62,903 nt of DNA from Gammaproteobacteria bacterium (GTDB taxonomy: Bacteria; Pseudomonadota; Gammaproteobacteria; Ga0077536). Each line of letters starts with the position of its first letter. Position 1 is the first letter of the stretch. The DNA lies in contig JAUIFX010000002.1 of assembly GCA_030429865.1 (NCBI GenBank), positions 1-62,903 on the forward strand. Direction: 5' to 3'. Below, one piece after another: positions 4,910 to 62,903 of this stretch. Under the pieces are notes generated by a model that saw only the letters and a program-made list of their open reading frames with translations, did not search any database and had not been told where the DNA came from. The position numbers were made by a program, and so were the translations under genes.

Positions 4910-4938
4910 GCGGGATCCGGGCACCTCGCTGCGCTGCA

Positions 4939-4958: not shown

Positions 4959-4996
4959 CGGACTCCCGGGACAGCGGCACGCGCGCGCCGGCGCCC

Positions 4997-5356: not shown

Positions 5357-5425
5357 GCCGGCCGCGCTTTCCTCTCGCTTCGAACAGCTACGCAGCATAC
5401 CGCGCGCGAGCGCCGGGGACGCGCC

Positions 5426-6529: not shown

Positions 6530-6589
6530 GCCGCTGCGACGACGCCGCCGCGCGCCGCCGGGCAAGCCCGCCCAGCTGGCGGCGCTTCG

Positions 6590-7003: not shown

Positions 7004-7013
7004 GCCCGCGCGC

Positions 7014-7990: not shown

Positions 7991-8251
7991 GTCGTGACGA
8001 GCCGGACTGGAAGGGACGCGCGCATCGTAACGAGGTCACGCGGACCCTTGATGTCACGCCGTGCGCACCAGTATAAGGGACCCTGCGCAGCAATGATGCG
8101 AACCTGCCCGGCGGCAAGGCCCGCGGCGCGCCCGCATGCGCTGCAGGCACCGAACCTCGGCATCGCGGCGCGGCGCGTCCCAGCGGCGCGCGGTGATGCT
8201 GCCAGGGCTTCGGCCCATCCCCGAGCGACCTGTTTCCGCCGCCACGCAACC

Positions 8252-11187: not shown

Positions 11188-11279
11188 GACGAGACACGCG
11201 TCGTCGTCGCCCGGCGCGTGCGGCCGGTTGCATCGCGCCCGTTCCGGCTCACCCGCCGCGGCGGCCTGACCCGCCCGTC

Positions 11280-13377: not shown

Positions 13378-13492
13378 CGTTTTCCCCTCGCTCAACGATC
13401 CTTGCTCAGCCGGCCCTGGAAAAGTGGCCGGACGCGACGGTATCACGTCGCCCGCCAGGTCTCCATGCGCGGGATCAACACATCGGCAGCGC

Positions 13493-14119
13493 TCAGTGCG
13501 CCGTACCCCACAGCTCCTCGAGCCGCTGGTCGCGCCCGCAGTTGTAACGGTAGAAGCGATAACGGAACGCGTTCTTGACGTAGAAATCCTGGTGGTAGTC
13601 CTCGGCCGGGTAGAACGTGGCGGCATCCTCGATGGTCACGACGATGTCTCCGGAGAACGGCTTGTTCCGTTCGAGCGCCGCACGCGAGGCCTCCGCCGCG
13701 GCCCGCTGCGCCGCGTCGTGGACGAAGATCGCGGGGCGGTACTGGTTGCCGTGGTCACAGAACTGTCCGTCGGCCGTGGTCGGGTCGACGTTGTGCCAGA
13801 AGACGTCTAGCAGGCGCTCGTAACTGACGCGCTCGGCATCGTAGACGACCTGCACGGCCTCGGCATGGCCGGTCTTGCCGCGCGAGACCTGGTCATAAGT
13901 GGGGTTCTCGACACTGCCGCCGATGTAGCCGGAGGTGGTCGAGACGACTCCCTCGAGGACGTCGAAGGGGCCCTCCATGCACCAGAAACAGCCGCCCGCG
14001 AACGTCGCCACCGCGCGCTCGCCGACCGCTTCCTCCGCCGCCACGGCCACGGCCGGCGCGAGCCACGCGCACAGACAGGCGGCGAGCGCCGACACGATAC
14101 GAACTCGGACGCGGGGCAT
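13493..14119 (-). CDS. msrA: peptide-methionine (S)-S-oxide reductase MsrA with a signal peptide
   Basis: GGCFWCMEG active site and GHAEAVQVVYD. N-terminus MPRVRVRIVSALAACLCAWLAPAVAVAAEE looks like a cleavable signal. Confidence 0.9.
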   Translation of the reverse strand: MPRVRVRIVSALAACLCAWLAPAVAVAAEEAVGERAVATFAGGCFWCMEGPFDVLEGVVSTTSGYIGGSVENPTYDQVSRGKTGHAEAVQVVYDAERVSYERLLDVFWHNVDPTTADGQFCDHGNQYRPAIFVHDAAQRAAAEASRAALERNKPFSGDIVVTIEDAATFYPAEDYHQDFYVKNAFRYRFYRYNCGRDQRLEELWGTAH

Positions 14120-14201
14120 GGCGAAGCTCCTGGGTAGATGCACGGGAGTGCCTTGAGACCGCCGCGGGCGCGCTAAGTTGCAGTGCGTCGCGCGCAGCCG
14201 T

Positions 14202-14999
14202 CTACCAGAACATCCATACCAGCCAGGCACCGAGCAGCAGTCGATAGAGTGCGAACGGCCACATGCCGACACGCTCGATGAAGCGCAGGAACAACACGAT
14301 GCAGACCAGCGCGCTGAACCCCGAACAAGCGGCGACGAGCGCGAGCTGACCCCAGGGTTGCGGACCCCCGGCGCTGACGAGCTCGAGCGCTTCGAGGCCG
14401 CCGGCGAGCACGATGACCGGGATCGAGAGCAGGAACGAGAAGCGCGCACCGGCGGCGCGCGAGAGGCCGGCGGCAAGGGCCGCGGTCATCGTGATACCGG
14501 AACGCGACACGCCCGGAATCAGCGCGAGCGCCTGCGCGGCGCCGATCAGCAGCACGTCGCGCCAGCCGAGCGAGCCGAGCTCGCGGCGCCGTGCGCCGAG
14601 ACGATCGGCGAGCCACAACAGGACACCGAAGATGACCGTGGTGGCAGCGATGACGAGTGGCGAGCGCAGGTTGTTGGCGATGAAATCGTGGCCGAGCAGG
14701 CCGACCAGGCCGACCGGGATCGTCCCCAGCAGCACGGCCCACGCGAGGCGTGCCTCGGGATTGCTCTCGCGCCGCGCGAGCGCCAGGCACCAGCCGCGGC
14801 TGAGGGCGAGGATGTCATGGCGAAAATAAGCGCACACCGCGGCCAGGCTGCCGAGATGGGCGGCGACGTCGAAGGCCAGTCCCTGGTCGGGCCAGTCGGT
14901 CACCGCCGGGAGCAGGATAAGGTGCGCCGAACTCGAGATGGGCAGGAACTCGGTGACGCCCTGCAGCAGGGCGAGCACGATGATGTGAAAGGTGGTCAC
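14202..14999 (-). CDS. uppP: undecaprenyl-diphosphate phosphatase
   Basis: LLQGVTEFLPISSSAHL and PGVSRSG motifs. Polytopic membrane protein of 265 aa. Confidence 0.9.
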   Translation of the reverse strand: MTTFHIIVLALLQGVTEFLPISSSAHLILLPAVTDWPDQGLAFDVAAHLGSLAAVCAYFRHDILALSRGWCLALARRESNPEARLAWAVLLGTIPVGLVGLLGHDFIANNLRSPLVIAATTVIFGVLLWLADRLGARRRELGSLGWRDVLLIGAAQALALIPGVSRSGITMTAALAAGLSRAAGARFSFLLSIPVIVLAGGLEALELVSAGGPQPWGQLALVAACSGFSALVCIVLFLRFIERVGMWPFALYRLLLGAWLVWMFW

Positions 15000-45573: not shown

Positions 45574-46605
45574 TCAGCCGTCGAGCAGGGCGAGCGCCGC
45601 GTCGGCGCAGCGCTCCACGCTGCGCTTGAACAGGTCGAGGTCGACGTCTGCGCGCTCGCCCATCGCGCCTTCGAGGTAGCGCTTGTAGACGCCCTGGCGG
45701 ATCGCCGCAATGCGCCAGAACGAGAACGCGCGGTAGTAGTCGATCCGGCTGACGTCGCGTCCGCTGGCGCTGGCATAGGCCTCGAGCAGCGCCTGGCGCG
45801 AGGGGAAGCCGCCGGCCACCGTCGGCATGTGTTCGTCGACGCCTTCGATGGTCTCGTCCGGCCCGACCCAGGAGTTCAGCAGGTAACCGAGGTCGGCCAG
45901 GGCGTCACCGAGCGTGCACAGCTCCCAGTCGAGCACCGCGCGGATGCGCCCGCCGCCGACGATGAAGTTGCCGAGACGGTAGTCCCCGTGGACGATGGCC
46001 GTGCCGACCTGCTGCGGCATGCGCTCGGCGAGCAGCCGCGCACAGGCCTCCATCGCAGGAATCGGGTGCGTGGTGGTCGCCTCCCACTGCCGCGTCCATC
46101 GCTTGAGCTGGCGTGCGATGTAGCCCTCGTGGCGACCGAGCTCGCCGAGGCCGACGCTGGCCGGATCGATCGCGTGCAGGCGCGCGAGCACTTCGACGAC
46201 GTGCTCGCCGAGCGCCGTACGCTCGGGCGGCGGCAGCGTCGCGGCCACATCGCGGTCATGGAGCACGGTACCGGCGACGAAATCCATCACGTAGAACGGC
46301 GCGCCGTTGACCGCGGGGTCCTCGCACAGCCCGCAGGTCGGCGCGACCGGCACCGCGCTGCCGGCCAGCGCACTGATGATGCGATGCTCGCGGGCCATGT
46401 CGTGGGCCGATTCGAGTACGTGGCCGAGGGGCGGACGGCGCAACACCCAGGTGTGCCCCGCGGCATCCTCGCAGGCGTAGGTCAGGTTGGAATGTCCGCC
46501 GGCGATGAGGCGGAAGCTGAGCGGCGCGCGCAAGGCCGGCAGGTGCGCGGCCAGCCAGGCGCCGACGCGGGGTGCGTCGATACCCTGCGGCACGGTTTCG
46601 GTCAT
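45574..46605 (-). CDS. phosphotransferase (APH/choline-kinase-like) family protein
   Basis: IVHGDYRLGN (catalytic loop) and VLDWELC. The N-terminus resembles the kinase-like module associated with ACAD10/11-type proteins. Confidence 0.75.
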   Translation of the reverse strand: MTETVPQGIDAPRVGAWLAAHLPALRAPLSFRLIAGGHSNLTYACEDAAGHTWVLRRPPLGHVLESAHDMAREHRIISALAGSAVPVAPTCGLCEDPAVNGAPFYVMDFVAGTVLHDRDVAATLPPPERTALGEHVVEVLARLHAIDPASVGLGELGRHEGYIARQLKRWTRQWEATTTHPIPAMEACARLLAERMPQQVGTAIVHGDYRLGNFIVGGGRIRAVLDWELCTLGDALADLGYLLNSWVGPDETIEGVDEHMPTVAGGFPSRQALLEAYASASGRDVSRIDYYRAFSFWRIAAIRQGVYKRYLEGAMGERADVDLDLFKRSVERCADAALALLDG

Positions 46606-46741
46606 CAGCAGTCTCCTCGATTCGATCAGGCGCCCCGGCGTGCGGCGAGCGGCAGCATAACGCGCGCGGCGCAGTGCATGCTGCCGGGGTCGGTGCCCGC
46701 GCTGTGTCGGCCGCGCACGCCCGGGCCGGGTGGGCCGCCCG

Positions 46742-47155
46742 TCAGGCGCCGGCGAGGCGCAACAGCGTGCGCCAGGTGGGAGCATCGACCGGCATCACCG
46801 ACAGCCGCGGCTGACGCACCAGGGCGAAGTCGGACAGCCCGGGCTGCGCCTTGATCGTGGCCAGCGACACCGGCTGCGGCAGGCGCGCCAGCGCACGCAC
46901 CGTCACGGCCACGAAGCGGCCGCTCGGATCGGTCGGGTCGGGGTAGCTGGCACGGGTGACCTCGAACGTGCCGACGACACGACGCTCGCGACCGCTGTGG
47001 TAGCACAAGCCCTGGTCACCGACCGCCATCTCGCGCAGGAATCCGGCCGCCTGGTGGTTGCGTACGCCGTCCCAGGTATCGCCGGCCGCGCCACAACCGA
47101 GCAGGTCGTCGAAGGAGAACGTCTCGGGCTCGGTCTTGAGCAGCCAGTAATGCAT
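46742..47155 (-). CDS. EVE (PUA-like) domain protein
   Basis: MHYWLLKTEPETFSFDDL ... WDGVRNHQA. Confidence 0.8.
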   Translation of the reverse strand: MHYWLLKTEPETFSFDDLLGCGAAGDTWDGVRNHQAAGFLREMAVGDQGLCYHSGRERRVVGTFEVTRASYPDPTDPSGRFVAVTVRALARLPQPVSLATIKAQPGLSDFALVRQPRLSVMPVDAPTWRTLLRLAGA

Positions 47156-50264: not shown

Positions 50265-51644
50265 ATGGTACCCGATGCGCCGGGGCGCCGCGCGGCTCGC
50301 GCGAATGCCGGCGGGCGGGTGCACGTGACCGGCCAGCCCCGCCGGCGTGAGCCGTCCAGCGTGCGCGCGGCCCCGCGCGCCGTGCCGCGTGGGCGCGCGC
50401 GGCTCGCCTGGTACGGGCCGGCGCTGGTCTGGATGGTCTCGGCAGTGGGCTCGGGCTCGGTGCTGTTCACACCGCGCGCCTGCATGTGGATCATGATTCG
50501 CGAGGCCGCGCGCTACACCACGGTCACCGGCCGCACCCTGCTCGACGGCTTCGGCCGGCTGCCGGGCCCGCGCGGCTGGGCCCTGTGGGTGATCTTCGTC
50601 CCGCAGCTCGTCGCCGCGGTCGTCGGCGTGGCGGGGCTGAGCGCGCTGGTCGGCAGCGCCGGAAGCGTCGCGCTGGGCGGCCCGCACTGGCTCTACACGC
50701 TGGGCCTCCTGGGCGCCGCTTCGGGCATCGTCGCGTTCGGCGAGTACGACGCGCTCGAACGCGCCAGCCGCTACATGGCGATGATCCTGATCGCGCTCAG
50801 CGTCGCCGCCGCGCTCAGCGTGCTGCCGCCTCCCGCCACGCTCGCCGCCGGGCTCGTGCCACGGATCCCGGCTGACTTCGAACTCGCTTTCGTGCTGCCC
50901 TGGGTCGGCACCATCCTGGCTGGTTCGATGGGTATCGTGTGGTTCGCCTACTGGACCGCGACGCACGGCTACGGCGGCGCCAGCGCGCTGTCGGGCGAGC
51001 ACCGCGAGGACAACGCGCAGGACGATGCCGGCACGGCCGAGGCGGTTCACGAGCGCCTGGCCGGCTGGCTGCGCCTGGTCTCGCGCGCCGCGCTCGCGGC
51101 CGTCGTCGGCGGGGCCTGCGTGATCGTCGCGTTCAATGTCCTCGGCGCCGAGTTGCTCGCGCCGCGCGGCCTGGTCCCGGCCGGCACCGATGTCGCCCGT
51201 GACCTCGCCCGCCTGCTCGAAGGCGTGTGGGGGGCGTTCGGCTTCTGGGCCCTGATCGTGCTGACCGTGTTCGCGCTCGGCGGCAGCGTGATGGCGAACC
51301 AGGACGGCTGGTCGCGCAGCTTCGCCGACATCACGCTGCTGCTGCTCGGTACGCGGGCGCGGCCGGCCTGGCTCACGCGGCGCAATCTCAAGCGTGCCTA
51401 TGCCCTGGGCGTGACGGGAGCCGCGCCGGCGGCGGTCTACCTGACCGTGCGCGACCCGGTCGCGATCATGTCCTGGTCGGGTGTCGTGGCGGCGGCGCAC
51501 ACGCCGTTCATCGTCGCGCTGATCCTGTTGGTCAACCGGGCACACCTGCCGCGGGGCCTGGCGCCCGGCCGCCTGGCAAGCGCTTGCCTGGCCACGGCCG
51601 GGCTCTTCTATCTCGGCGTCTCTCTCATGCGCCTGGCGGTGTGA
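50265..51644 (+). CDS. Nramp-like divalent metal transporter (divergent; start uncertain)
   Basis: YGPALVWMVSAVGSGSVLF resembles the Nramp TM1 motif. REAARYTTVTGRTLLDGF and NQDGWSRSFADI resemble distant Nramp-family members. See the finding on a possible missing segment. Confidence 0.6.
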   Translation: MVPDAPGRRAARANAGGRVHVTGQPRRREPSSVRAAPRAVPRGRARLAWYGPALVWMVSAVGSGSVLFTPRACMWIMIREAARYTTVTGRTLLDGFGRLPGPRGWALWVIFVPQLVAAVVGVAGLSALVGSAGSVALGGPHWLYTLGLLGAASGIVAFGEYDALERASRYMAMILIALSVAAALSVLPPPATLAAGLVPRIPADFELAFVLPWVGTILAGSMGIVWFAYWTATHGYGGASALSGEHREDNAQDDAGTAEAVHERLAGWLRLVSRAALAAVVGGACVIVAFNVLGAELLAPRGLVPAGTDVARDLARLLEGVWGAFGFWALIVLTVFALGGSVMANQDGWSRSFADITLLLLGTRARPAWLTRRNLKRAYALGVTGAAPAAVYLTVRDPVAIMSWSGVVAAAHTPFIVALILLVNRAHLPRGLAPGRLASACLATAGLFYLGVSLMRLAV

Positions 51645-51655
51645 CAAGCGCCGCC

Positions 51656-51673
51656 GTGACACAACTGTGACAC
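51656..51673 (+). promoter_or_regulatory. direct repeat GTGACAC-N4-GTGACAC, candidate OmpR/PhoB-type response-regulator box
   Basis: Two identical heptamers with an 11-bp period lie 58-75 nt upstream of the hemA-like ATG. A third GTGACA sits at 51641-51646. Confidence 0.3.
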
Positions 51674-51730
51674 GCAGGCGGCGGCGGTTTGCTATCTGTA
51701 AGCGCGTACTCCAATGGAACGGGCAGCGCC

Positions 51731-53059
51731 ATGCTGGAACGATTGGGCATGATCGGCGCCTCGTGGCGCCGCGGCGGCAGCGAGTCACTCGCCGGGTTCA
51801 GCCTGCCAACCGAGCAGCGCGAAGCGCGCCTGGCTGATTTCGCCGACGCGCACGGTCTCGCCGAGATCGTCTACATCGGCACCTGCAACCGGGTCGAGCT
51901 GGTCTTCGTACATGCCGACGCGGTCGCGGCATCGACCGATTTGCGCGCGGCCGCGTGGGAACTGCTGACGGGTACGCGCAGCACGCCGGGCGAAGCCAGG
52001 CGCCATCTCCGCGCCTGGGCCGGAGAGGGTGCCCTGGAACACCTCTTCCTCGTCACCGCCGCCCTCGATTCGGCGTGTCTCGGCGAAGCCGAGATTGCCG
52101 GCCAGGTACGCGCCGCCCATGACGCCGCCCGCGAACACGCACTCAGCGGCAAGGCCCTGGACCCCGTCTTCGAGGCGGCGTTCCGGGTCGGCGCGCAAGT
52201 GCGCACCGAGACGGCACTCGCGAGCGGACGCGTTTCACTCGCCGAGATCGCGGCCGACGAGCTCGCCGTCCAGCAGCGCGCGTGCGGGGGGCGGATCGCC
52301 CTCGTCGGGGTTTCGCCGATGACCGAGAAAGCCGCAGCCGCGCTGGCCACGCGTGACATACCGCTGCTCATCGTCAACCGCACGGCAGCCCGCGCGGCGG
52401 CTCTCGCCGGGCGCCACGGCGCGCAGAGCATGCTTCTCGACGATTTTCGCCGCGAGGGTGCCCGTGACGTCTGCGCGCTCCTCAGCGCCACGGGGGCCCC
52501 GAATGCCGTCGTCGGGCGCGCCGCACTCGAACGCCTGCAGGCACTCGCCCCACGTGACACCCTCCTCGTCGTCGACATGGCCGTACCACCGGATGTCGCG
52601 CCGGAGGCCTGCCGCGCACTCGGCCTGCGGCGGATCGGGATGGACGACATCGCCGCGGTGGCGGCCCGTAATCGCGGCGCCCGCCAACGCGAGGCGGCCA
52701 CTGCGCGGGAGATCGTCGACGAGGCATTGACGACGTTCATCGCGACGCAGGCGGAGCGCCGCTACGGCACGCTGATCGGCAACCTGCAACGGCGCTACCA
52801 GCACACGGCCGAGAGCGGTGTGGAGCGCCTGCTCGGCCGGGAGCTCGCCGGGCTCGGCGAAGCGGAGCGCGATGCCGTGCGGCGCTGGGCACGGGTACTG
52901 GCCCGCCGCTTCGCACATATTCCCTGCGTGGGTCTGCGCGGCTTGCTGCGCGACGGCCCGGATGGCGCGCTCGAAGCGTTCGTCGGCGGTCTCGATCCCG
53001 AGCTTGCCGACGAGTTGTTCGCTGCCCCGCGGCACGCGCCGACGGAGGCGCGGGGATGA
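51731..53059 (+). CDS. glutamyl-tRNA reductase homologue (divergent)
   Basis: GTCNRVEL (catalytic Cys motif), HLFLVTAALDSACLGEAEIAGQVR, QVRTETAL, IVNRTAARA and VVDMAVPPDV are collinear with HemA. NHKTAP is replaced by GASWRRGG, and GAGEM is replaced by GVSPM. Confidence 0.75.
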   Translation: MLERLGMIGASWRRGGSESLAGFSLPTEQREARLADFADAHGLAEIVYIGTCNRVELVFVHADAVAASTDLRAAAWELLTGTRSTPGEARRHLRAWAGEGALEHLFLVTAALDSACLGEAEIAGQVRAAHDAAREHALSGKALDPVFEAAFRVGAQVRTETALASGRVSLAEIAADELAVQQRACGGRIALVGVSPMTEKAAAALATRDIPLLIVNRTAARAAALAGRHGAQSMLLDDFRREGARDVCALLSATGAPNAVVGRAALERLQALAPRDTLLVVDMAVPPDVAPEACRALGLRRIGMDDIAAVAARNRGARQREAATAREIVDEALTTFIATQAERRYGTLIGNLQRRYQHTAESGVERLLGRELAGLGEAERDAVRRWARVLARRFAHIPCVGLRGLLRDGPDGALEAFVGGLDPELADELFAAPRHAPTEARG

Positions 53060-54189
53060 GCACACGGCCACTCGCCGCTAACATGGCAGGGCGTTTCCGT
53101 TCCCGGCGGGGCGAACCCATGGCGCTCAAGCGAGATTATGCCAAGCTGCTGCAGATCGTCTTCGTCATCCTGCTCGTGGTGTGCTCGGCACAGGTCGCGT
53201 GGTGGATCGGCGAGAACCTGCATTACGCGGAAACGACGACGGCGCGCCTGGAGGGGCTTTACCGCGACCTCGCTCGCAGCCACGCCGGGCGCAGCGCGGA
53301 GTCCCTGCCCGCTTACCTGGCGGTCGACGCCACCAGCGGCGAAATCGGCGTATCTCCTGACGTGCTCGAGGCCCTGCGAACCACCGGTGATGCCCGCGCA
53401 AGGCGCTACTACTGGGAAGGCGGCTTCTTCCTGGTGGTCTTGATCAGCGGCATGGCCGTGGTCTCGGCAGCGATCCGCCACGACGCCGCGCTGCGCCGGC
53501 GCCAGCAGAACTTCCTGGCCGGCGTCTCCCACGAGTTCAAGAGTCCGCTGGCCAGCATCCGGCTCGCCGCCGAGTCACTTGCCCGGCGGGGCAGTGCCAG
53601 CGACACCGCTCGCTGGACCCCGCGCATCATCGCCGACTGCGAGCGCCTCCTGCGCACCGTGGACAACCTGCTCGACACCGCGCGCCTGGAGGACGGCCGG
53701 CACCTCGTCACCGCGCGGCGGGTCGTGCTCAGCACCGCCATCGACCAGGCGATCGACGAACAGTCGGCACGTGCCTCGCGCGATGGCATCGCCCTCGCGC
53801 AGGAGGTCGATGATCCCGGACTCGCGCTGGACGTCGACCCGGAAGCGCTGGCAAGCATCCTGCGCAACCTGATCGACAACGGCATCAAAGCCTGCGTGGC
53901 CGGCGACGGCTCGGCGGTCACCGTGTCCGTGGACAGCGAACAGGGTCCCGTTACGCTTCGCGTGAGTGACGACGGCATGGGGTTCCCGCCCTCCGAAGCG
54001 GCGCTGTTGTTCGAGAAGTTCTACCGCGTGGGGGACGAACGCCAGCGACGCACGAGCGGCAGCGGGCTCGGCCTCTACCTGGTGCTGCGGTTGACGCAGA
54101 TGTCGGGGGCGCGTGTCCATGCCGACAGTGCCGGGCCCGGACGCGGTGCGACGATCACGGTGCGCTGGCCACCGGAGCGACGCGCGTGA
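53056..54189 (+). CDS. sensor histidine kinase (two TM helices, roughly 75-aa periplasmic loop)
   Basis: H-box SHEFKSPL, N-box LRNLIDNGIKA, G1 DDGMGF, G2 GSGLGL. ATG at 53056 overlaps the hemA-like stop (ATGA). An alternative ATG is at 53119. Confidence 0.85.
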   Translation: MSTRPLAANMAGRFRSRRGEPMALKRDYAKLLQIVFVILLVVCSAQVAWWIGENLHYAETTTARLEGLYRDLARSHAGRSAESLPAYLAVDATSGEIGVSPDVLEALRTTGDARARRYYWEGGFFLVVLISGMAVVSAAIRHDAALRRRQQNFLAGVSHEFKSPLASIRLAAESLARRGSASDTARWTPRIIADCERLLRTVDNLLDTARLEDGRHLVTARRVVLSTAIDQAIDEQSARASRDGIALAQEVDDPGLALDVDPEALASILRNLIDNGIKACVAGDGSAVTVSVDSEQGPVTLRVSDDGMGFPPSEAALLFEKFYRVGDERQRRTSGSGLGLYLVLRLTQMSGARVHADSAGPGRGATITVRWPPERRA

Positions 54190-54917
54190 CCAGCCGCGCG
54201 GAGATCCTGGTCGTCGACGACGAGGTCCATCTCGCCGAGGGTATCGGCGAGAACCTGGCAGCCGAAGGCTACGCGGTGCGCATCGCCCATGACGGCGCGG
54301 AGGGACTCGCCGCGGCGCTCGCCGAGCCGCCGGATCTGATCGTGCTCGACGTCATGATGCCGCATCTCGACGGTATCGAAGTCTGTGCTCGCCTGCGCGC
54401 GGCCGGGCTCGACACGCCGGTGCTGTTCCTGACCGTCAAGGCGGCCGCCGACGACCGCGTCGAAGGCCTCGAAGCCGGCGGCGACGATTACCTCGCCAAA
54501 CCGTTTCACCTCAAGGAGCTGTTGCTGCGCGTGGCGGCGATCCTGCGCCGCCGTACCTGGACTCCGGGGCGCCCGGGCACGCCGTTACGCTTTGGCGGCA
54601 ACGAGGTGGATTTCGCCACCTACCGCGCCCAGGCCTGGGACGGCCGCGAGCACGAGCTTCCCTACAAGGAGGCGATGATCCTGCGGCTGCTGAGCGACCA
54701 GGCAGGGTCGGTGGTGACCCGCGAGGACATCCTCGAACACGTCTGGGGCCAGGAAGTCTTTCCCTCGACGCGCACCGTGGACAACTTCATCGTCCGCCTG
54801 CGCAAGCGCTTCGAGCGCAACCCCGAACAACCCGTTCACATTCACACGGTGCGCGGCGTCGGCTACCGGCTGAGCACCGATCCGGACAGCGCCAGGGCGG
54901 CCGACGCCGCAATCTGA
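54186..54917 (+). CDS. OmpR/PhoB-family response regulator
   Basis: ILVVDDE, LIVLDVMMP, AKPF, winged helix TVRGVGYRL. The GTG overlaps the kinase stop (GTGA). Confidence 0.9.
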   Translation: MTSRAEILVVDDEVHLAEGIGENLAAEGYAVRIAHDGAEGLAAALAEPPDLIVLDVMMPHLDGIEVCARLRAAGLDTPVLFLTVKAAADDRVEGLEAGGDDYLAKPFHLKELLLRVAAILRRRTWTPGRPGTPLRFGGNEVDFATYRAQAWDGREHELPYKEAMILRLLSDQAGSVVTREDILEHVWGQEVFPSTRTVDNFIVRLRKRFERNPEQPVHIHTVRGVGYRLSTDPDSARAADAAI

Positions 54918-55047
54918 TCCCGGCCCGGATTCGGGACCGGGGCAGCGTGTATACTCCGCGCACCAGCCCCGTGCTGGCCTTCGCACGGTGGGCTCGCCGC
55001 GGTTTCCTCGCGCCACCGCGCTCTGCTGACAGTTCCCGGCCACCGAT

Positions 55048-56430
55048 GTGACTACCGACACCGAAAACCCGCAGCCAGACGTGACCCTCGTGCTCGATCT
55101 CGAGGGCGTCATCCAGCAGGTCAATCACTCGCCCGCGATTCCCGATTTCGACAGCACCGACTGGATTGGACGCGCCTGGACCGACACCGTCGAGGACGGC
55201 GGCGCGGAGAAGCTGCGGCGCCTGATCGATGACGCTTCCACGCAGGGCGTTTCGGCTTTCCGCCAGGTCAACCAGCGGTTCCCCGGCGGCAACGAGATTC
55301 TGATGGAGTACACGGCGGTGCGGCTCGACGACCGCGCCAGCCTGCTCGCGGTCGGCAAGAGCCTGCAGGCGGTCGCCCAGCTGCAGGAACGATTGGTCGC
55401 CGCACAGCAGGCGATGGAACGCGATTACTGGAAGCTGCGCCAGGTAGAGACCCGATACCAGCGTCTTTTCCAGTCGAGCAGCGAGGCCGTGCTGATCATC
55501 AGCCAACCGGATTGCCGCATCGTCGAAGCCAATCCGACCGCGGCCAGGGCCATCGATCATCAGGGCAAGCGTGGGCACGACGTGCAGGGACTGAGCTTCC
55601 TCGATGAACTCAATTCCGACGATCAGCGCGCGCTGCGTGCGTTGCTCGCGCGCGTGCTCGAGCAAGGTGCGGCCCCGGGGATCCTGGTCCACCTCGGACC
55701 GCAGCGCAGTTCGTGGATACTCCGCGCCGTGCCCATGACGACGGAACGCGGGCAGGGCTTTCTGCTGCAGATGACGGCCGGCGCCGGCAACGAACCCGCG
55801 CCACAGGAAACGCCGCAGCGTTTCTCGGTGGAAGCGCTGGTCGAGCGCATGGTCGACGCTTTCGTGATCACGGATGACGAAGGACAGGTCCTGTACGCCA
55901 ATCCCGCGTTCGCCGAACTGGCCCAGCTCAGCTCGGCCGGCGCCGCGCTCGGCAAACGCCTCTCGCGCTGGCTCGGCAACCCGGGCGCCGATGCCTCCAT
56001 CCTGCTCGCGAACGCTTTCCGGCACGGCTGCGTGCGCTTGCTCGGCACGACGCTGCATGGCGAACTCGGCGCGACCAGCGAGATCGAAATTTCGGCGGCG
56101 GTGGACGACCCGAATGCGCCGCACTTCTGTGCGCTGGCGCTACGCGACGTGGGCCGGCGCCTGCGCGCCAACGGCGAAGGCGCCGGACTCGGGTCGATAC
56201 TCGACGCACTGACCGAGCAGATCGGCAAGAAAGGCCTCAAGGATCTCGTTGCGGATGCGGTCGCGGTCGTCGAGCGGCATTACGTCGAGGCCGCGCTGCA
56301 GCTCACCAGCGGCAACCGGACCGCCGCGGCCGACGTGCTCGGCCTCAGCCGCCAAAGCCTCTACGCGAAGCTCAACCGCTACGGCCTGGACACGATTCCG
56401 GCGCGCAAGCCGAGCGATGATGAGAGCTGA
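55048..56430 (+). CDS. ppsR: photosynthesis gene repressor PpsR/CrtJ
   Basis: 460 aa. PAS repeats with the Q-linker-like MERDYWKLRQVETRYQRLFQSSSEAVLI. C-terminal Fis-type HTH NRTAAADVLGLSRQSLYAKLNRYGL. Confidence 0.85.
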   Translation: MTTDTENPQPDVTLVLDLEGVIQQVNHSPAIPDFDSTDWIGRAWTDTVEDGGAEKLRRLIDDASTQGVSAFRQVNQRFPGGNEILMEYTAVRLDDRASLLAVGKSLQAVAQLQERLVAAQQAMERDYWKLRQVETRYQRLFQSSSEAVLIISQPDCRIVEANPTAARAIDHQGKRGHDVQGLSFLDELNSDDQRALRALLARVLEQGAAPGILVHLGPQRSSWILRAVPMTTERGQGFLLQMTAGAGNEPAPQETPQRFSVEALVERMVDAFVITDDEGQVLYANPAFAELAQLSSAGAALGKRLSRWLGNPGADASILLANAFRHGCVRLLGTTLHGELGATSEIEISAAVDDPNAPHFCALALRDVGRRLRANGEGAGLGSILDALTEQIGKKGLKDLVADAVAVVERHYVEAALQLTSGNRTAAADVLGLSRQSLYAKLNRYGLDTIPARKPSDDES

Positions 56431-58600
56431 CGGCTCACCGCAGACGAATTCGACACCGGCATTTGGTAAAGCCGACCTATCGAACTGCGAGCGCGAGCAG
56501 ATCCATCTCGCCGGCGCCATTCAGCCGCATGGTGCCCTGCTCGCGCTGGACGCGGAAACGCTGCAGGTGCGGCAGGCCAGCAGCAACGCCATGGCGTTCC
56601 TGGATCTGCCCCGCGAACCACTGGGCGAGCACGTCGCCGCCCTGCCCGGCGACGTCGCCGATCAGATTGCACCCTGGCTCGATCGCGAACTGAGCGGGAT
56701 TCCCGTCGCCGTGCGCTGCCGCGTGGGCCTGTCCCGCGGGCACTACGACTGCCTGCTGCACCGCGCCCATGCCCGGATCATCGTGCTCGAGTTCGAACGC
56801 GCAGAGCGCTCGGAGCTGCGCTCCGGCACGCTGCGTGACGCGCTCGAGCGCATCGCCCAGGCGTCCTCGCTGACGGCGCTGAGCGAGAACACCGCGAAGA
56901 TTTTCCGGCAGCTGACCGGCTACGACCGGGTCATGATCTACCGCTTCGACGAGGCAGGACACGGCGAAGTCTTCGCCGAGAGCCGGGTGGACGAGCTGGA
57001 ACCCCTGCTCGGCAATCGATACCCGGCATCCGACATCCCGCAGATCGCGCGGAAACTCTACGAACGCAATCGTGTCCGCCTGCTCAGCGACGTCCACAGC
57101 GAACAAGTCCCCCTCGTGCCGCCGCGCAACCCGGTCACCGACGCCGAGCTCGACATGTCCCTGTGCACCCTGCGCAGCATGTCGCCCATCCACGTGCAGT
57201 ACCTGAGGAACATGGGTGTCTCGGGCACGCTAGTCGCCTCCCTGATGGTCGGCGGACGCCTGTGGGGCCTGATCTCCTGTCACCACTACGAGCCGCGCTT
57301 CGTGGATTACGAGATGCGTGCGCAGTGCGAGCTCCTCGCGGAAGCCGTGAGTACGCGGATTGCCGCCCTGGACAGCTTCGTGCAGGCGCGCGCCGAGCTC
57401 TCGGTACGGCGCATCGAACAACACATGCGCGCCGCCACGCGACAGCATGGCGACTGGCGGGCAGCCCTGTTCGACAGCGCCGAGCCGTTGCTATGGCCGC
57501 TCGGGGCAGCCGGCGCAGCAATGTTGTTCGAAGGGCAGGTCCACACGGTGGGCGAAGTGCCGGCGACCGAACACCTGCGCGACCTCGCCGCCTGGCTGGA
57601 TACGCGGCCGCGCGCCGCGATCTACAGCACGGCTTCGCTGGGCGCCGAGGAAGCACGCTTCGGCGCCCTCTCGCCCATACTGTGCGGGCTGCTCGCGGCA
57701 CCGATTTCGCGCACCCCGGGAGAATACCTGCTCTGGGTGCGGCCGGAACGGGTACGAACGGAGGTGTGGGGCGGAAATCCTAACGAGCCCGTCATCGTCG
57801 GCGACGACCCCGCGGATTTGTCGCCGCGACGCTCGTTCGCCAAGTGGCACGAGCTGGTCCGCGGCACCGCCGATCCGTGGAGCGAAGCCGATCTCACCGC
57901 CGCCAATCTGATCGCGGGCTCGGTAGCCGACGTCATCAACCAGTTTCGCTCGGTGCGCGCGCTGATCGTGCGCGACCAGCTCGAGGAACTTCACAGCCAG
58001 GTGCGCGGCGCCGAACAGCCCATACTGATCTGTGATGCCGAGGGCAACGTTCTGCTCGTCAACCACGCGATGTTGCAGCTGCTGCCGTCACCCGACGACC
58101 CGCCGCAGCACCTGCTCGAGCTCGCCGCACCCTTCATCGATCACGATGCCGCTCGAGCCTGTCTCGATGCGCTGTTGCGTGCCCGTCAGCCATGGCACGC
58201 GGAGGTCGAGTGCCAGGCCCGGGATGGCGACGCACTGCCCCTGCTGGTGCGCGCCGATCCGGTGATCTCGCCGCGCCAGAAGCTACTCGGCTTCGTCGTG
58301 CTGTTTACCGACATCTCGGTGCAGAAGAACGCCGAGCGTGCCCGCGCGCGCTTCCAGGAACGCATCATCGATCGCAGCGCGCTTTCCCGATTGCGCCTCA
58401 CTAACGAAGGTGACGCGCAGTTTCGCAAGTTGATGTCCGTAATAGTCGATAACGCTCAACTCGCTGCCCTCGAAATTACCGACGGCCTCAATCCGCAGCG
58501 CATGCCGGGCATGCTCGACGGCGTGCAAGCGAGCGTCGCACGCTCCACCGAGCTGCTCGAGATCCTGCTGCGCCATGCCTCCCGCTCAGCGCGAAGCTGA
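56417..58600 (+). CDS. bphP: bacteriophytochrome without a histidine-kinase output (PAS-GAF-PHY-PAS plus helical tail)
   Basis: Biliverdin Cys in DLSNCEREQIHLAGAIQPHG. Also RVMIYRFD, YPASDIPQIARKLY, SPIHVQYLRNMGV, and the PHY tongue WGGNPNEP...PRRSFAKW. No H/N/G1/G2 kinase boxes in the C-terminal 230 aa. Confidence 0.9.
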   Translation: MMRADGSPQTNSTPAFGKADLSNCEREQIHLAGAIQPHGALLALDAETLQVRQASSNAMAFLDLPREPLGEHVAALPGDVADQIAPWLDRELSGIPVAVRCRVGLSRGHYDCLLHRAHARIIVLEFERAERSELRSGTLRDALERIAQASSLTALSENTAKIFRQLTGYDRVMIYRFDEAGHGEVFAESRVDELEPLLGNRYPASDIPQIARKLYERNRVRLLSDVHSEQVPLVPPRNPVTDAELDMSLCTLRSMSPIHVQYLRNMGVSGTLVASLMVGGRLWGLISCHHYEPRFVDYEMRAQCELLAEAVSTRIAALDSFVQARAELSVRRIEQHMRAATRQHGDWRAALFDSAEPLLWPLGAAGAAMLFEGQVHTVGEVPATEHLRDLAAWLDTRPRAAIYSTASLGAEEARFGALSPILCGLLAAPISRTPGEYLLWVRPERVRTEVWGGNPNEPVIVGDDPADLSPRRSFAKWHELVRGTADPWSEADLTAANLIAGSVADVINQFRSVRALIVRDQLEELHSQVRGAEQPILICDAEGNVLLVNHAMLQLLPSPDDPPQHLLELAAPFIDHDAARACLDALLRARQPWHAEVECQARDGDALPLLVRADPVISPRQKLLGFVVLFTDISVQKNAERARARFQERIIDRSALSRLRLTNEGDAQFRKLMSVIVDNAQLAALEITDGLNPQRMPGMLDGVQASVARSTELLEILLRHASRSARS

Positions 58601-59284
58601 GTCGCCGGCACGGCCCGCGACCGCCGCGGAAAGCGCGATGGTGTGACGGAACGCCACGCAGGCCTCGGCGACGATGCCGTCGTGATCAGAACGCTTCGCG
58701 GCATGCGCGATCGCCGCGCGCAACGCATCGGTCAAGGTGGGCGACACCGGGGAAGCCGTATCGGTCGGCACGCGCTCGGGAAAATCGAAATAGGCCAGGG
58801 CCTCGCGCGGTACGTCGAATCGTTCTCGCACCAGGCGCCGCAGGATGCGGCCACCGGAAAGGTCGCCGAGATAGCGCGCATAGACATGCGCCAGAAGTAA
58901 CGGGGGATGAGTAGCAGCGAGGGTCGCCAGATGCGCCGCGTAGTCCGCCGCCGGGGCCACGAGCGGCAGGTCCTCGCGCCAGTTCGGACCGGCGAGGCGG
59001 CCGAGGTCGCGCGTGAGGGCCGGGCCGCGGCGCAGCACGCCGCCATCGAATGGCGCCAGGATGGGACGCGCCTCGAGACCCAGCTCGAGGGCCGCATAGA
59101 CCGGGACCAGATTGCGCAGCAGCAGCAGGTAACCGTCGCGTGTAGCCCGTCCCGCGATCAGCGCACCGTAGATACCGCCCCGTTCCGCCTCGGTGTGCAG
59201 ATCGCGCGTCGCCGCGCGCAGCCGCGCGAGCAGGGACACCGGCGCTACCGGGTCAAGCGCCTGGTTCCGGATGACCTCGTCCAT
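58586..59284 (-). CDS. bphO: heme oxygenase (biliverdin-producing, BphO-like)
   Basis: LLARLRAATRDLHTEAE, YLLLLRNLVPVY, HVYARYLGDLSGG. Confidence 0.85.
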   Translation of the reverse strand: MDEVIRNQALDPVAPVSLLARLRAATRDLHTEAERGGIYGALIAGRATRDGYLLLLRNLVPVYAALELGLEARPILAPFDGGVLRRGPALTRDLGRLAGPNWREDLPLVAPAADYAAHLATLAATHPPLLLAHVYARYLGDLSGGRILRRLVRERFDVPREALAYFDFPERVPTDTASPVSPTLTDALRAAIAHAAKRSDHDGIVAEACVAFRHTIALSAAVAGRAGDSASR

Positions 59285-60554
59285 TCGTGCATGATACGTG
59301 ACCGTCCGGCTCCTGCGGGGCGCGGCGGGAACGGCGTTCCGGTCGCCGATCGAGACCGTAGGGAGCGACCAGTGACCACACGTGTGGCGGTATCAGGTGA
59401 CGCATCAGGCGCGGTCGCTGGCGGGCAAGATGCAGGACGGTCTCCGCCGCCTTCATTTCGACGCGGGCGCGCGCGAACTCGAGGCCGCGCGGTCCCACCC
59501 GCGGCATCAGGAAACCGAGCAAGGGCCGCAGCCAGCGCGGAGTGCGCCGCAGGGGCAGCCCGCCCGCGGCCCGCTCGAGGTTGGCAACGAAGCCCCGCAC
59601 CGCACTGGCGCGCCGCCCACCGCTGCCCGGCGCGGCCAGGCGCACTTCGCCGGTAAGCTGGTCGAGCAGCATCTCGCCCCGCGCATTGCGCACGATCAGC
59701 CACTGCTCGCCGTCACCGCCCATGTAACCGACGGTGATGTCGGCGAGCGCGTTGGTGTAGTCGACGCAGGTCCGGCAGGTGAGCGGAAAGAAATCCGCCG
59801 GCAGGTCCGCAATTGGCAGGGAAAGAAACGGGATCGCCTTGCGCCGACCGTCGTCGAAACGCAGTTCGACGTGGTAGTCGGTGCGGAACTCGAGATAGTT
59901 GATGGATTCGGGCTGGTCGCTGAGCAAGGCGAGGAAGTCGTGGAAGCGGTCCGTCGTCGTGTTATCCGAACAGGGCGTGCCGATCACGTAGAGGGCGTCG
60001 AAATCGAGTTCGGTTTCGAGCGCACGCAAGGCATGGACCTGGCACGGAATCCCGATGATCGCGAGTCGGCGCAGCCCGCGCTCACGCGCGGGCTCGAGAA
60101 GTGCGAGCAGCGGCGCGAACCCCATGCGCATGCCGCGGCACTTCGCGAGTTCGGCAGGGTCGGTGACGAGCACCGGCACCGGCTTCCAGCGGTCTTCCGG
60201 ATCCGGAGCGACGGTCAGCACCGCGTCGACGGTACCCGTCTCGAGCAGGCGCTCGGCGAGACGCGTGGTGATACCCGACCATTGCGCGCCCGCTCTCGGC
60301 GCGACGAGGCTAGCGCGAAGCAGGCGCCGAAACGGTCCGAAGAAACGCTCGTCGGAGCGATCGGCGGCACGCGAACGCCCATGCACGCGCTCTTCGAGCG
60401 CCGCGTGGTCGGGCCGGATGAACTGGCAGGCCTGCGCGCAGCGTGACGGCTTCGAAGTCCGCGAGATGCCGCAATCCGTACACAGCGTGCGCGGTGCGGC
60501 GTCGGCCAGCGGCGGCAGCGCAACACCGGGCAGCCGCGCACCCGAAGCCGGCAT
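59253..60554 (-). CDS. F420 hydrogenase/dehydrogenase beta-subunit (FrhB) family protein, possibly a BciB-type 8-vinyl reductase
   Basis: 433 aa. CTDCGISR...C..ACQF, LAIIGIPCQVHALR, VIGTPCSDN and CRTCVDYTNALADITVGYMG are FrhB/BciB-like. Starts 7 nt after pufC. Confidence 0.6.
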   Translation of the reverse strand: MPASGARLPGVALPPLADAAPRTLCTDCGISRTSKPSRCAQACQFIRPDHAALEERVHGRSRAADRSDERFFGPFRRLLRASLVAPRAGAQWSGITTRLAERLLETGTVDAVLTVAPDPEDRWKPVPVLVTDPAELAKCRGMRMGFAPLLALLEPARERGLRRLAIIGIPCQVHALRALETELDFDALYVIGTPCSDNTTTDRFHDFLALLSDQPESINYLEFRTDYHVELRFDDGRRKAIPFLSLPIADLPADFFPLTCRTCVDYTNALADITVGYMGGDGEQWLIVRNARGEMLLDQLTGEVRLAAPGSGGRRASAVRGFVANLERAAGGLPLRRTPRWLRPLLGFLMPRVGPRGLEFARARVEMKAAETVLHLARQRPRLMRHLIPPHVWSLVAPYGLDRRPERRSRRAPQEPDGHVSCTNGRGHPEPGA

Positions 60555-60561
60555 GATCCGG

Positions 60562-61557
60562 TCAGTCGCCTTGCAGGGCCGGGAACTCGGCGATCACGCT
60601 GGCCCCGCCCATCGGCTTGGGCAGGCCCTGGTGGCAGGTCCCGCAGTTGACCTTGGGCGCGTCGCCTTCCGGGCCGAGACGGTGCTCGGGGAGGACTTCG
60701 GCGAGCGGCGAGACATAATCGCCGTTGAGTGCCCGGACCATCTGAATGCCGTGCCAGGCCGTCACGCGGGTCGGCGGACTTTCGTCCCAGTTGTAGAACG
60801 CCCGCGTGTTGTGACAATAGGTGCAGTTGACGTCGAGTGCCTCCGAGAGATGCATCATCAACGCGTATGTCGCCTCGGTGTCCTTGATGTTCCGGGTGTT
60901 GCCGCGCGGCAAGGCCGAGTTCGTCGCCACGCGGATCGCGGCCTCGCCGTCGAGCATGTCGGTGAACGGGTCGACCGGCAACGATGCATACTGCGGCACC
61001 GGCGAAGGTGCGTTCTGCCCGGCCCGGTTACCCGCGAACACGCCCGCTTCCTCGACATTGGAGAACCAGGTCGTTGCAGGCACGTTCTCGCCGCGGTGGC
61101 AGGTGAAGCAGGTCACCCCGGTTTCGCCGACATGGGCGTGTCCACCGCTGTTGATGAAGCGTGTCATTTCGATCATGCGCCGCGCGACCACCTTCGTATA
61201 GAGTGCGTCGCTCGCCATGTCTGCGCCTTCATGGCAGTAGGCGCAACCCTGGTCCGGGGCAACCCAGGTCGTCAGCGCGGTCATGAGGCGGGTGAATGAC
61301 GCAATGTCGAGATCGCCGAGCAGCTGCACGTTCTGGTAGATATCGCCGGCTTTGGGTCCGCCGCCGGGCGCCGCCGGCGGCAACGCCGGCATCGCGGTGT
61401 CGGTCATGATCTTGTCGACCACCTTCATGTTGTCGACCTGCACCATGCCGGTCCCGCGAAAGCCCTGCTGGACGGACTCGGGCGGCGGGGCCTCGCAGCC
61501 GCTCAAGGCCAGTGCCACGCCCAGGCCCACGATGACATGTGCTTGCAGGAATCTCAT
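60562..61557 (-). CDS. pufC: photosynthetic reaction-centre tetraheme cytochrome subunit
   Basis: Four CxxCH motifs (CAYCH, CFTCH, CTYCH, CGTCH). Lipobox LALSGC. The ATG overlaps the pufM stop (ATGA). Confidence 0.9.
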
Positions 61558-62528
61558 GGCGCACCTCCGGCCGGGTCGGTGACGGCCGGAAAGACGTCGG
61601 GATAGGCTGGCGCCACCCCGTGCTTGACCGACCACAGGAACCAGTTGTCGACCGCGGTACCCGTCAGCAGGATGCCGATACCGCCGGTCAGCGGGCACAG
61701 CACCGCGAACCACCACGCCCACCGATGGATGGACTCCATCGTTGCGTTGAAGCCCATCGTCCAGCGCCAGAACAACGCCGCCCGCTCGGACGCCGTGCCG
61801 CGGTCGACCACTTGTTCGATCTCGCGTTCTCCACCGTAGCGGCTGACCGCGAGAATGGTCGCCCCGTGCATCGCGAAAAGCAGCGTCGACCCGTAGAGAA
61901 ACGCGATCGACAACATGTGGAACGGGTTGTAGAAGAGATTGCCGTACCTGATCGAGAACGCGGCCGTCCAATCCAGGTGCGGGAAGATTCCGAAGGGTAC
62001 GGCTTCCGACCAGCTGCCCATGAGCAGCGGACGAATGAAACCGAGCACGAGATAGAGCCAGATCGCCGCCGCGAAGGCCCACGCCACGTGCGTGCCCATG
62101 CCCAGCGCGCGAGCCCGGGTGTACACGCGGACCCACCAAAGCACGATGGAGGCGGTGAGGAAGAAGCCGGCGATCAGCCACCAACCGCCGTCGTTCAGTG
62201 GAGGGAACAAGCTGATCCCGTATTCCGCTCCCGGAGGCTCCAGCGCCAGCCATGGCAGCTGGCGTACGAATTCGACCGGACTCCAGTCGACCGAGGCCCA
62301 CATGTTGAGTCCGATGATTTCGATCGCGATGAAGCCGCACAGCAACGAGGCGATACCGGTCGTGCCGAGATGGATCGGCCCGATCTGGGCATCACCGAGC
62401 TTCCCCAGCCAGTAGGAGAAGAACGGCCGGCCTGCGCGCGGCCACAGTTCGTGTTGCTCAGATGGCACGCCGTCGTAGGGCGGCGCATGCACCTGAACGC
62501 GAGTGAAGATGTTCTGATATCCAGCCAT
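61554..62528 (-). CDS. pufM: photosynthetic reaction-centre M subunit
   Basis: [13 protein letters not shown]..., [43 protein letters not shown]. Confidence 0.95.
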
Positions 62529-62542
62529 GGCTTAGTCGCCTC

Positions 62543-62903
62543 CTACCACACCGGCAAGTTGAGCCACCAGGTCCACCATTCCGGCCAGCCCCGGGTCCAG
62601 AAGGGTCCGCTGATGACGATGCACACCGCGCTCCAGAAGCCCGCCGAGAGCGCCAGGAAGAGCCCCAGGCGATGGATTCCGAGGGTTCCTATCGAATAGC
62701 CGATGGTGTCGCGGAAGAAGGTGTTCTCGTGTTCGACGGTCTTCACCGCCTCGCCCTTGCGCGGGTTGGTTGCCGACAGGATCAGGGATCCGTGCAGTGA
62801 CAGCGCAAAGGTCGTTGTGAAGAAGAAACTGACCGCGAGCATGTGCGCGGGGTTGTAATGGAAGTGAAGGTACTGGTACCCGACATTGGAGACCCAGTCG
62901 AGA
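62543..62903 (-). CDS. pufL: photosynthetic reaction-centre L subunit, 5'-truncated by the window edge
   Basis: The frame is open to the window end: ...[44 protein letters not shown]...[18 protein letters not shown] before pufM, 14 nt downstream. Confidence 0.95.

Follow-up and report, generated by a model that had tools for sequence, protein, structure and literature searches.

The stretch of DNA considered here, referred to below as the window, comprises 62,903 nucleotides of contig JAUIFX010000002.1 of a gammaproteobacterial genome assembly (GCA_030429865.1). Its positions 51731-54917 carry three open reading frames (ORFs) of the same strand, which encode a divergent glutamyl-tRNA reductase (GluTR), designated hemA* below, a sensor histidine kinase (HK) and a response regulator (RR), and which are preceded by a direct repeat, TGACA-CAACTG-TGACA, called here the hem-box. 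Judging from this repeat, the position of the genes and the design of the kinase, the three-gene unit is HemKR-like, HemKR being a module which, so far as the searched literature shows, has previously been described only in Leptospira.

The HemKR system (Hklep/Rrlep) is presented in Louvel (2008; PMC2266917) and Imelio (2024; PMC11426443), and in Morero (2014) as cited therein. In L. interrogans the genes of Hklep and Rrlep are located between hemL and hemE of the hemACDBL-ENYH cluster and are co-transcribed; Hklep has two transmembrane (TM) segments, a dispensable 32-aa loop and His98, and the mutants require heme or 5-aminolevulinic acid (ALA) (PMC2266917). Phosphorylated HemR binds TGACA[N6]TGACA upstream of hemA, activates hemA and represses hmuO, while ALA switches HemK to phosphatase (PMC11426443). 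Thus, a precedent exists for the arrangement of which the original prediction, made from the window alone, had known no described example, i.e. a hemA-kinase-regulator operon.

Organization of the locus

The gene content of the window, whose G+C content is 66-75%, was defined by an ORF filter based on G+C at third codon positions (GC3) together with Pfam searches. The hemA* gene (51731-53059, + strand, 442 aa), assigned by Pfam, by structure prediction with Foldseek and by a clade alignment, overlaps by ATGA (53056-53059) with the gene of a HemK-like sensor histidine kinase (53056-54189, + strand, 377 aa, with an alternative start at 53119), recognized by Pfam and hydropathy. The latter overlaps by GTGA (54186-54189) with the gene of a HemR-like response regulator of the OmpR/PhoB family (54186-54917, + strand, 243 aa), in which Pfam finds Response_reg and Trans_reg_C. 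The codon composition of all three ORFs is of the coding type (GC3 0.77-0.82) and their Pfam matches are strong; the chain that they form agrees in its coordinates with the one originally noticed.

The divergent glutamyl-tRNA reductase

HemA* matches the Pfam families GlutR_N (PF05201; 104 bits), Shikimate_DH (PF01488; 59 bits) and GlutR_dimer (PF00745; 31 bits), all above their cut-offs. With the NCBI model for hemA, TIGR01035, it scores 201.7, just under the cut-off of 209.55, which justifies the epithet "divergent" in the original prediction; with NF000744 it scores 194, the cut-off being 429. Its identity to E. coli HemA (b1210) is 27%, and to any canonical HemA 27-32%. A sequence search of the PDB with HemA* matched 1gpj and 4n7r at about 1e-24. 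The AlphaFold2 model has a predicted local distance difference test score (pLDDT) of 86.5, with values above 90 through the Rossmann beta-alpha-beta part, and its top Foldseek matches are GluTR structures, namely 1gpj of M. kandleri, 5yjl and 4n7r of Arabidopsis, and 5che.

Every GluTR motif and every deviation quoted in the original prediction was found in the protein. The canonical motifs TCNRVEL, LDSACLGEAEIAGQV, VRTET, VNRT and VDMAVPPD are present, while IGASWRRGG occupies the place of INHKTAP of the E. coli enzyme, and VGVSPMT that of VGAGET. The sequence G-V-S-P-M-T does not conform to the canonical NADPH loop GxGxxG/A, which reads GAGETI in E. coli, GAGEMG in M. kandleri and GTGQLA in L. 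alstonii.

In an alignment of 22 members of the HemA* clade, about 55% identical, the motifs TCNRxE, GEGAxE(H)LF, LDSAxxGExExxxQV, VRxxT, GRVSL and VNR(T/S) are conserved, and the catalytic Cys motif and the motifs of glutamate recognition align with those of E. coli HemA. The deviations are conserved as well: G-V-S-(P/A)-M-T, IGxSWR, DM(A/S)(V/I)P(P/A)D and the C-terminal LARRFAHxPxxGxRGL, with G193, V194, S195, M197 and T198 invariant across the clade. Because the deviations themselves are kept clade-wide, the peculiarities of HemA* appear from the alignment to be clade-defining features under selection and not signs of decay, and the replacement of GxGxxG by GVS(P/A)MT throughout the clade appears to be new. 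The His of GEGAxEHLF, which aligns with a conserved His of canonical GluTR, is replaced by Arg in two of the 22 members (P0003 and P0005 (L002), both of the ppsR-linked sub-group). The operon context, described below, and the invariance of the catalytic motifs lead us to suggest that HemA* is most likely the working glutamyl-tRNA reductase of the lineage in spite of its odd nucleotide loop.

As for the start of the gene, TTG at 51689 was rejected in favor of ATG at 51731, since the N-terminus of the family reads MLExLG and the predicted -10 element (51690-51695) lies downstream of the TTG.

Distribution and conservation of the operon

A protein search revealed at least 120 homologues of HemA* at 52-69% identity, which bear the name "hypothetical protein" where NCBI annotates gammaproteobacterial metagenome-assembled genomes (MAGs), and "glutamyl-tRNA reductase" at JGI. 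When one genome per species was scanned, relatives of hemA* turned up in 420 genomes. Complete MAG chromosomes that carry hemA* include NZ_OZ253579.1, OZ257136.1, OZ245000.1 and OY969712.1. The 80 records listed for the 420 genomes are all MAGs, and those with a family or genus name belong to Candidatus Rariloculus/Rariloculaceae (order Ca. Rariloculales, Gammaproteobacteria); a literature search on "Rariloculus" gave no match.

For the synteny analysis the hem genes, the kinase and the regulator were placed by tblastn on 82 non-redundant loci, 71 of which have enough downstream sequence to be informative. The gene order hemA*-hemC-hemD-hemB-hemL-HK-RR, optionally continued by hemE and a chlorite-dismutase-like gene (cld), was found in 51 of the informative loci, often with an APH gene upstream. 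In 19 others, including the window, hemA* is followed by HK and RR directly, the next genes being hemE-cld, those of fructose-bisphosphatase and phosphoribulokinase (FBPase-PRK), or ppsR(-bphP), as in the window and in the loci L002 and L006. The linkage of hemA*, HK and RR is kept in 70 of the 71 informative loci; the kinase and the regulator belong firmly to the hem operon, and they stay with hemA* when the operon breaks up. The outcome that would have refuted the original prediction, a three-gene linkage conserved in no relative, is thus not the one observed.

The sole informative locus without the kinase and the regulator within 10 kb is L083 (OY282447.1, 10001-18000), where hemA* is followed by genes of TauD, a C13 peptidase and a large beta-propeller protein, and the hem-box is kept at -118. 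The pair may reside elsewhere in this genome, as it does in L. biflexa.

Neither prfA, nor prmC, nor a second hemA or GluTR-like gene occurs within 10 kb of hemA* in any of the 82 loci. It had been pointed out originally that canonical gammaproteobacterial hemA usually sits with prfA-prmC and that the context in the window is another one; the former is seen in E. coli, and the latter thus extends to the whole set of loci. In L001 (16473-17207) and in most of the loci L007-L082 a gene of the chlorite dismutase family (HemQ/ChdC-like) directly follows hemE, which hints at a coproporphyrin-dependent branch of heme synthesis in this gammaproteobacterial lineage.

Beyond the Gammaproteobacteria, the Planctomycetota MAG L087 (GCA_050248855.1) contains at 2707-14602 the operon hemH-hemA*-hemC-hemD-hemB-hemL-HK-RR-hemE-hemN-hemY. 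The regulators of L087 and of the window are 66% identical, the HemA of L087 is of the GVSPMT type and 44% identical, and a hem-box with one mismatch, TGACGCTCATTTGACA, lies upstream. Therefore the module crosses phylum boundaries, unless the L087 bin was misassigned. Unlike the gammaproteobacterial relatives with cld after hemE, L087 has hemN and hemY.

The hem-box and the putative promoter of hemA*

The hem-box of the window, TGACACAACTGTGACA, is located on the + strand at 51657-51672, 74 nt upstream of hemA*; it was delimited by a motif search over the 82 loci and is the predicted site of the operon's own regulator. TGACA-N6-TGACA is unique in the window even with one mismatch tolerated, about 0.04 exact occurrences being expected. 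The box is exact in 77 of the 82 loci, and each of the remaining five shows it with one mismatch; all exact boxes are on the coding strand, 47-149 nt and mostly about 48 or 71-77 nt upstream of hemA*. No other exact copy was found on either strand of the 1.43 Mb searched, as compared with approximately one expected from base composition, and the box persists through three different rearrangements of the operon. Matches with two mismatches occur across the window at chance level only.

Alignment of the 77 loci anchored at the box revealed a -10-like hexamer (TGCTAT, TGATAT, TGGTAT, CTAnnCT) 17-18 nt past the second TGACA, so that the proximal half-site GTGACA probably doubles as the -35 element. 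The putative promoter of hemA* in the window (51667-51695, + strand) accordingly consists of the -35 GTGACA at 51667-51672, a 17-nt spacer and the -10 TGCTAT at 51690-51695. A scanner for the sigma-70 consensus did not call this promoter, the assignment coming from the cross-locus alignment only.

In about 27 loci (for example L013, L026, L035, L046, L056, L059, L063, L065 and L077-L085) the hem-box is only 47-51 nt from the start codon of hemA*. With a 17-nt spacer and the -10 element, the transcription start would therefore fall on or beside the start codon, and these hemA* mRNAs may be leaderless; in the window transcription is predicted to start at about 51702, with a leader of about 29 nt. 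A third TGACA, at 51642-51646 of the window and 15 nt upstream of the hem-box, does not keep to the 11-bp register and shares nucleotides with the stop codon of the Nramp-like ORF; it is probably due to chance.

The sensor kinase and the response regulator

According to Pfam, the kinase consists of HisKA and HATPase_c and contains neither a HAMP nor a PAS domain. The hydropathy profile shows two membrane segments, TM1 (about aa 31-52) and TM2 (about aa 122-140), with a periplasmic loop of about 69 aa (roughly 75 in the original prediction, whose description of a membrane kinase without HAMP and an OmpR-family regulator otherwise proved accurate). The phosphorylated His is aa 159, only some 18 aa past TM2, so there is no space for HAMP. 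The conserved parts of the protein are the TM-proximal segments AQVAWWI and RYxWEGGFFL and the H-box SHEFKSPLAS. The sequence of the loop is not conserved within the clade, and this variability matches the dispensability of the loop of Hklep (PMC2266917).

The residue at His+4 in the H-box (window 53530-53544), which is required for phosphatase activity and corresponds to Thr102 of HemK, is Ser throughout the clade (SHEFKSPL; 67 orthologues aligned) and Asn in the Planctomycetota kinase. The start of the kinase gene at 53056 is preceded by GGAGG at a distance of 7 nt, and L006 and L002 share the ATGA overlap; most orthologues begin at the position of the alternative start, 53119. The start overlapping by ATGA opens a separate 35-aa ORF in L002 (9323-9430), and in the window (53056-53118) and L006 (about 11324-11389) it yields an in-frame extension of the kinase by 21 aa. 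The segment could be a relay of translational coupling rather than a part of the mature kinase.

The regulator, whose phospho-acceptor is Asp55 by alignment position, is 62-87% identical to its orthologues in related loci. A search of representatives with it matched clusters of Planctomycetota and Thermoanaerobaculaceae; Leptospira was absent from the ten clusters looked up. The regulator of L088, 52% identical, was considered as an orthologue and dropped, as it is not hem-linked.

Neighbouring genes

The gene of the photosynthesis repressor PpsR (55048-56430, + strand; TIGR02040 441.6 bits, cut-off 275) starts 130 nt after the regulator gene, so it does adjoin the operon, as originally stated. 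No terminator was predicted between the two in a scan of 51400-55200, the single call being inside the upstream gene. The order hemA*-HK-RR-ppsR is also found in L002 and L006. It is followed in the window by bphP, encoding a bacteriophytochrome with the domains PAS_2-GAF-PHY-PAS (56417-58600, + strand, approximate start), 81% identical to its L006 orthologue, and by a convergent heme oxygenase ORF (58589-59392, - strand; Pfam Heme_oxygenase, 117 bits). Further on there are an FrhB/BciB-like gene (59256-60593, - strand), an ORF without a Pfam match (60821-61198, + strand), pufM (61557-62531, - strand) and a truncated pufL (62546-62902, - strand), inside which the contig ends. With ppsR and the bacteriophytochrome, heme oxygenase, FrhB/BciB-like, pufM and pufL genes, this end of the contig represents the border of a photosynthesis gene cluster.

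The genes preceding hemA* encode an Nramp-like transporter, an MFS pump, an aldehyde dehydrogenase and an APH-family kinase. In most relatives the gene of the APH-family phosphotransferase is the immediate 5' neighbour of hemA* and is read in the same direction; the window has it at 45577-46794 (- strand), 5 kb from hemA* and separated from it by the aldehyde dehydrogenase, MFS and Nramp-like genes, which indicates a rearrangement or an insertion upstream of hemA*. Scans for Rfam families and tRNAs gave no match in the region, and no PpsR sites (TGT-N12-ACA) were found near hemA*, ppsR or the puf end.

Proposed regulation

We suppose that hemA* and the two genes behind it form a unit complete in itself, which serves the entry step of tetrapyrrole synthesis, is probably autoregulated and probably works like HemKR of Leptospira. 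A single promoter would drive hemA*, the kinase and the regulator as one translationally coupled transcript. Since all 82 loci have the hem-box, since it occurs at no other promoter in the DNA searched, and since the regulator gene belongs to the same operon, the co-encoded regulator in its phosphorylated form is strongly expected to bind it. If HemR acting on hemA of Leptospira is taken as the model, binding would activate the transcription of hemA*. The kinase would phosphorylate the regulator by default and, again as in Leptospira, would act as a phosphatase upon accumulation of ALA or of a later intermediate of the porphyrin pathway, sensing through the membrane-boundary segments and not through the variable loop; the committed step would in this way be subject to negative feedback. 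In the phototrophic sub-lineage hemC-D-B-L and hemE would have moved away, with the hemA*-HK-RR core now upstream of ppsR-bphP; being located there, the pair would set the supply of precursors for heme and bacteriochlorophyll next to the light/redox regulators. One of the two options of the original prediction, the committed step placed under a dedicated signalling pair, is well supported by the linkage in 70 of the 71 loci and by the promoter repeat in all 82.

Likeness to HemKR and the alternative explanations

Leptospira DNA for the comparison was found with a degenerate pattern derived from the published primers and then by a search for HemR homologues; queries with hemB and hemA* found no Leptospira records in PLSDB. 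The contig L089, from a saprophyte, encodes a kinase with the published F31-S62 loop and His98, and a regulator with Asp53, 87% identical to that of L. biflexa. L090, from L. alstonii, has the order hemA-hemCD-hemB-hemL-HK-RR-hemE-hemN-x-hemY with hemH opposite. Its hemA is preceded at 53 nt by an exact hem-box, the proximal half of which is the -35 TTGACA, followed after 18 nt by TATAGT. The two systems share the consensus TGACA-N6-TGACA located 50-75 nt before hemA, with the proximal half serving as -35. The position of HemKR between hemL and hemE is the dominant form in the relatives of the window (51 loci). The kinases of both have two TM segments, HisKA and no HAMP, an ungapped segment of identical spacing from TM2 to His, and the common elements (V/A)(W/Y)W at the end of TM1 and EGxFF at the start of TM2. 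HemR and the regulator of the window share the recognition helix RT(V/I)DNxI(V/L)RLR.

A number of observations weigh against equating the two systems. The regulator is only 33-36% identical to HemR (phmmer E-values 2.5e-40 to 1e-24 at library size) and the kinase 26-30% identical to HemK (2e-11 to 2e-6 at library size). OmpR-family clusters related to the regulator at E<=1e-30 number 6,485, and many are as close as HemR or closer, while the hidden Markov model (HMM) of the family ranks HemR last of 169 targets, in a set biased to top matches. The periplasmic loop is of about 69 aa in the window and of 32 aa in Leptospira. The heme oxygenase gene, a target of the hem-box in Leptospira, has no hem-box in the window, neither the ORF nor its operon being preceded by a match with two or fewer mismatches. 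The partner GluTR has 442 aa and GVSPMT in the window, and 291 aa and GTGQLA in Leptospira; as regards the use of NADPH, GVSPMT means the loss of two of the three Rossmann glycines. Finally, the signal and the sign of regulation are assigned by analogy, and TGACA-N6-TGACA is likewise obtained when the pho box of E. coli is read as its reverse complement.

The low sequence identity (26-36%) leaves common descent with HemKR unproven, and the pairs of the window and of Leptospira are not each other's closest relatives. Deep vertical divergence is nevertheless plausible, because hemE also is only 30% identical between Leptospira and the lineage of the window, and the G+C content shifts from 35% to 70%. 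At His+4 the window has Ser where HemK has Thr. The window also differs in having the pair directly after hemA* and before ppsR-bphP, in a phototrophic gammaproteobacterium and not in a spirochete. As to the partner enzyme, HemA of L. alstonii (L090, 4356-5231) matches only GlutR_N in Pfam, has TCMR for TCNR and apparently misses the dimerisation region; being short and having a normal GTGQLA loop, the Leptospira HemA indicates that the HemA* type is not common to all HemKR systems.

The same low identity could be explained by convergence: an unrelated PhoB-like pair, which may sense phosphate, iron, oxygen/redox or envelope stress, was independently recruited between hemACDBL and hemE, and the TGACA repeat arose through coincidence with the -35 consensus, so that the likeness to HemKR is only superficial. 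In agreement with this, the non-hem-linked L088 pair is closer to the proteins of the window than the Leptospira pair is (regulator 232 bits versus 104-155 for HemR, kinase 142 versus 44-60 for HemK), a search with HemR finds other regulators, outside Leptospira, at about 50% identity, the motif is that of the inverted pho box, and JGI labels close relatives as PhoP/PhoB-type. However, convergence would have to account at once for the common insertion point, the common regulator family, the HAMP-less kinase with two TM segments, the TM2-to-His spacing, the 16-bp box and the geometry of box, -35 and -10; a regulator identity of 33-36% is to be expected from deep divergence with the G+C shift, hemE being 30% identical; and the proteins are far under the cut-offs for PhoB (TIGR02154, 175 for the regulator versus 296) and PhoR (TIGR02966, 125 for the kinase versus 334). 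We regard convergence as rather unlikely, albeit worth serious consideration.

Another explanation, put forward in the original prediction, concerns HemA* itself, which might be a specialised or non-catalytic GluTR paralogue, perhaps a Glu-tRNA- or heme-binding partner of the pair, with ALA made by a canonical hemA located by prfA or by an ALA synthase. The clade-wide loss of GxGxxG and NHKTAP, the change of VPRD to VP(P/A)D, the score under the curated hemA cut-off and the low identity to canonical HemA speak for it. However, hemA* is the first gene of hemA*-hemC-hemD-hemB-hemL in 51 species-level genomes, which is the position of a working GluTR, and there it heads the full hemA-C-D-B-L-(HK-RR)-E operon; the catalytic Cys, the glutamate-pocket motifs and VNR(T/S), the motif for the NADPH 2'-phosphate, are invariant at about 55% identity; the Rossmann beta-alpha-beta part is modelled with high confidence; and there is no second GluTR-like gene close to hemA* in the loci analysed. 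The paralogue explanation is consequently disfavored, and we consider it improbable.

Least of all do we expect that the hem-box is bound by PhoB or another OmpR-family protein while the pair controls other targets: PhoB-like half-sites are indeed common to several regulators and the site is a predicted one, yet box and pair stand in the same operon in 70 of the 71 loci, the box survived three rearrangements, and the 1.43 Mb of flanking DNA contain no other exact copy.

Returning to the reading of the unit as a HemKR-like one, its broadest version would unite the hem-operon pair and the TGACA-N6-TGACA box into an ancient precursor-sensing module common to Spirochaetota, Planctomycetota and Gammaproteobacteria, which in phototrophs gates the supply of heme and bacteriochlorophyll beside PpsR/BphP, and whose usual partner outside Leptospira is an unrecognised GluTR clade without GxGxxG, perhaps binding the reductant differently or being regulated at this loop. 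Taken with all its parts, this version is tentative and rather doubtful.

If the HemKR likeness is real, HemKR would turn from a peculiarity of Leptospira into a widespread design controlling the committed step of tetrapyrrole synthesis, with the binding site, promoter geometry and partner genes readable from sequence in several hundred uncultured species. The conservation of the membrane-boundary segments, and not of the loop, gives comparative leverage on the signal of HemK. The GluTR clade is missed by the curated HMM cut-offs and called "hypothetical protein" by NCBI; automated reconstructions would therefore wrongly score heme and bacteriochlorophyll synthesis in these abundant soil and sediment gammaproteobacteria as lacking the first enzyme. 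The location of the module upstream of ppsR-bphP in the phototrophic branch suggests that feedback by precursors may be linked with the control of bacteriochlorophyll synthesis by light and redox state.

Comparison with other known systems

With canonical GluTR (E. coli b1210, 1GPJ, 4N7R/5YJL) HemA* shares the three-domain fold, the long spinal helix and the dimerisation domain, as well as the motifs TCNRxE, LDSxxxGExxIxxQV, VRxET, NR(T/S) and DxxVPxD. It differs by VP(P/A)D instead of VPRD and by the clade-specific C-terminal LARRFAHIPCxGLRGL, and its gene, unlike E. coli hemA, does not adjoin prfA-prmC.

The regulatory part resembles PhoBR of E. coli in having a regulator of the OmpR/PhoB family and a direct repeat with an 11-bp period which replaces or overlaps the -35 element. 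The half-site TGACA is complementary to CTGTCA, the core of the pho box, and such a PhoB-like motif means that motif identity alone proves neither descent from HemR nor binding by the regulator of the window. Unlike in PhoBR, the box has the opposite orientation relative to the gene, and the partners are heme genes.

As for other systems connected with heme, HrrA of the Corynebacterium system HrrSA controls hemA and other hem genes (PMC7337898). HrrSA and ChrSA of Corynebacterium and HssRS of S. aureus are, like the kinase of the window as we picture it, membrane kinases reporting the heme pool via membrane-embedded parts. In contrast to the pair of the window, they are located outside the hem operon, use other DNA motifs and sense heme itself, whereas the pair described here would, by analogy with HemKR, respond to ALA or porphyrin precursors.

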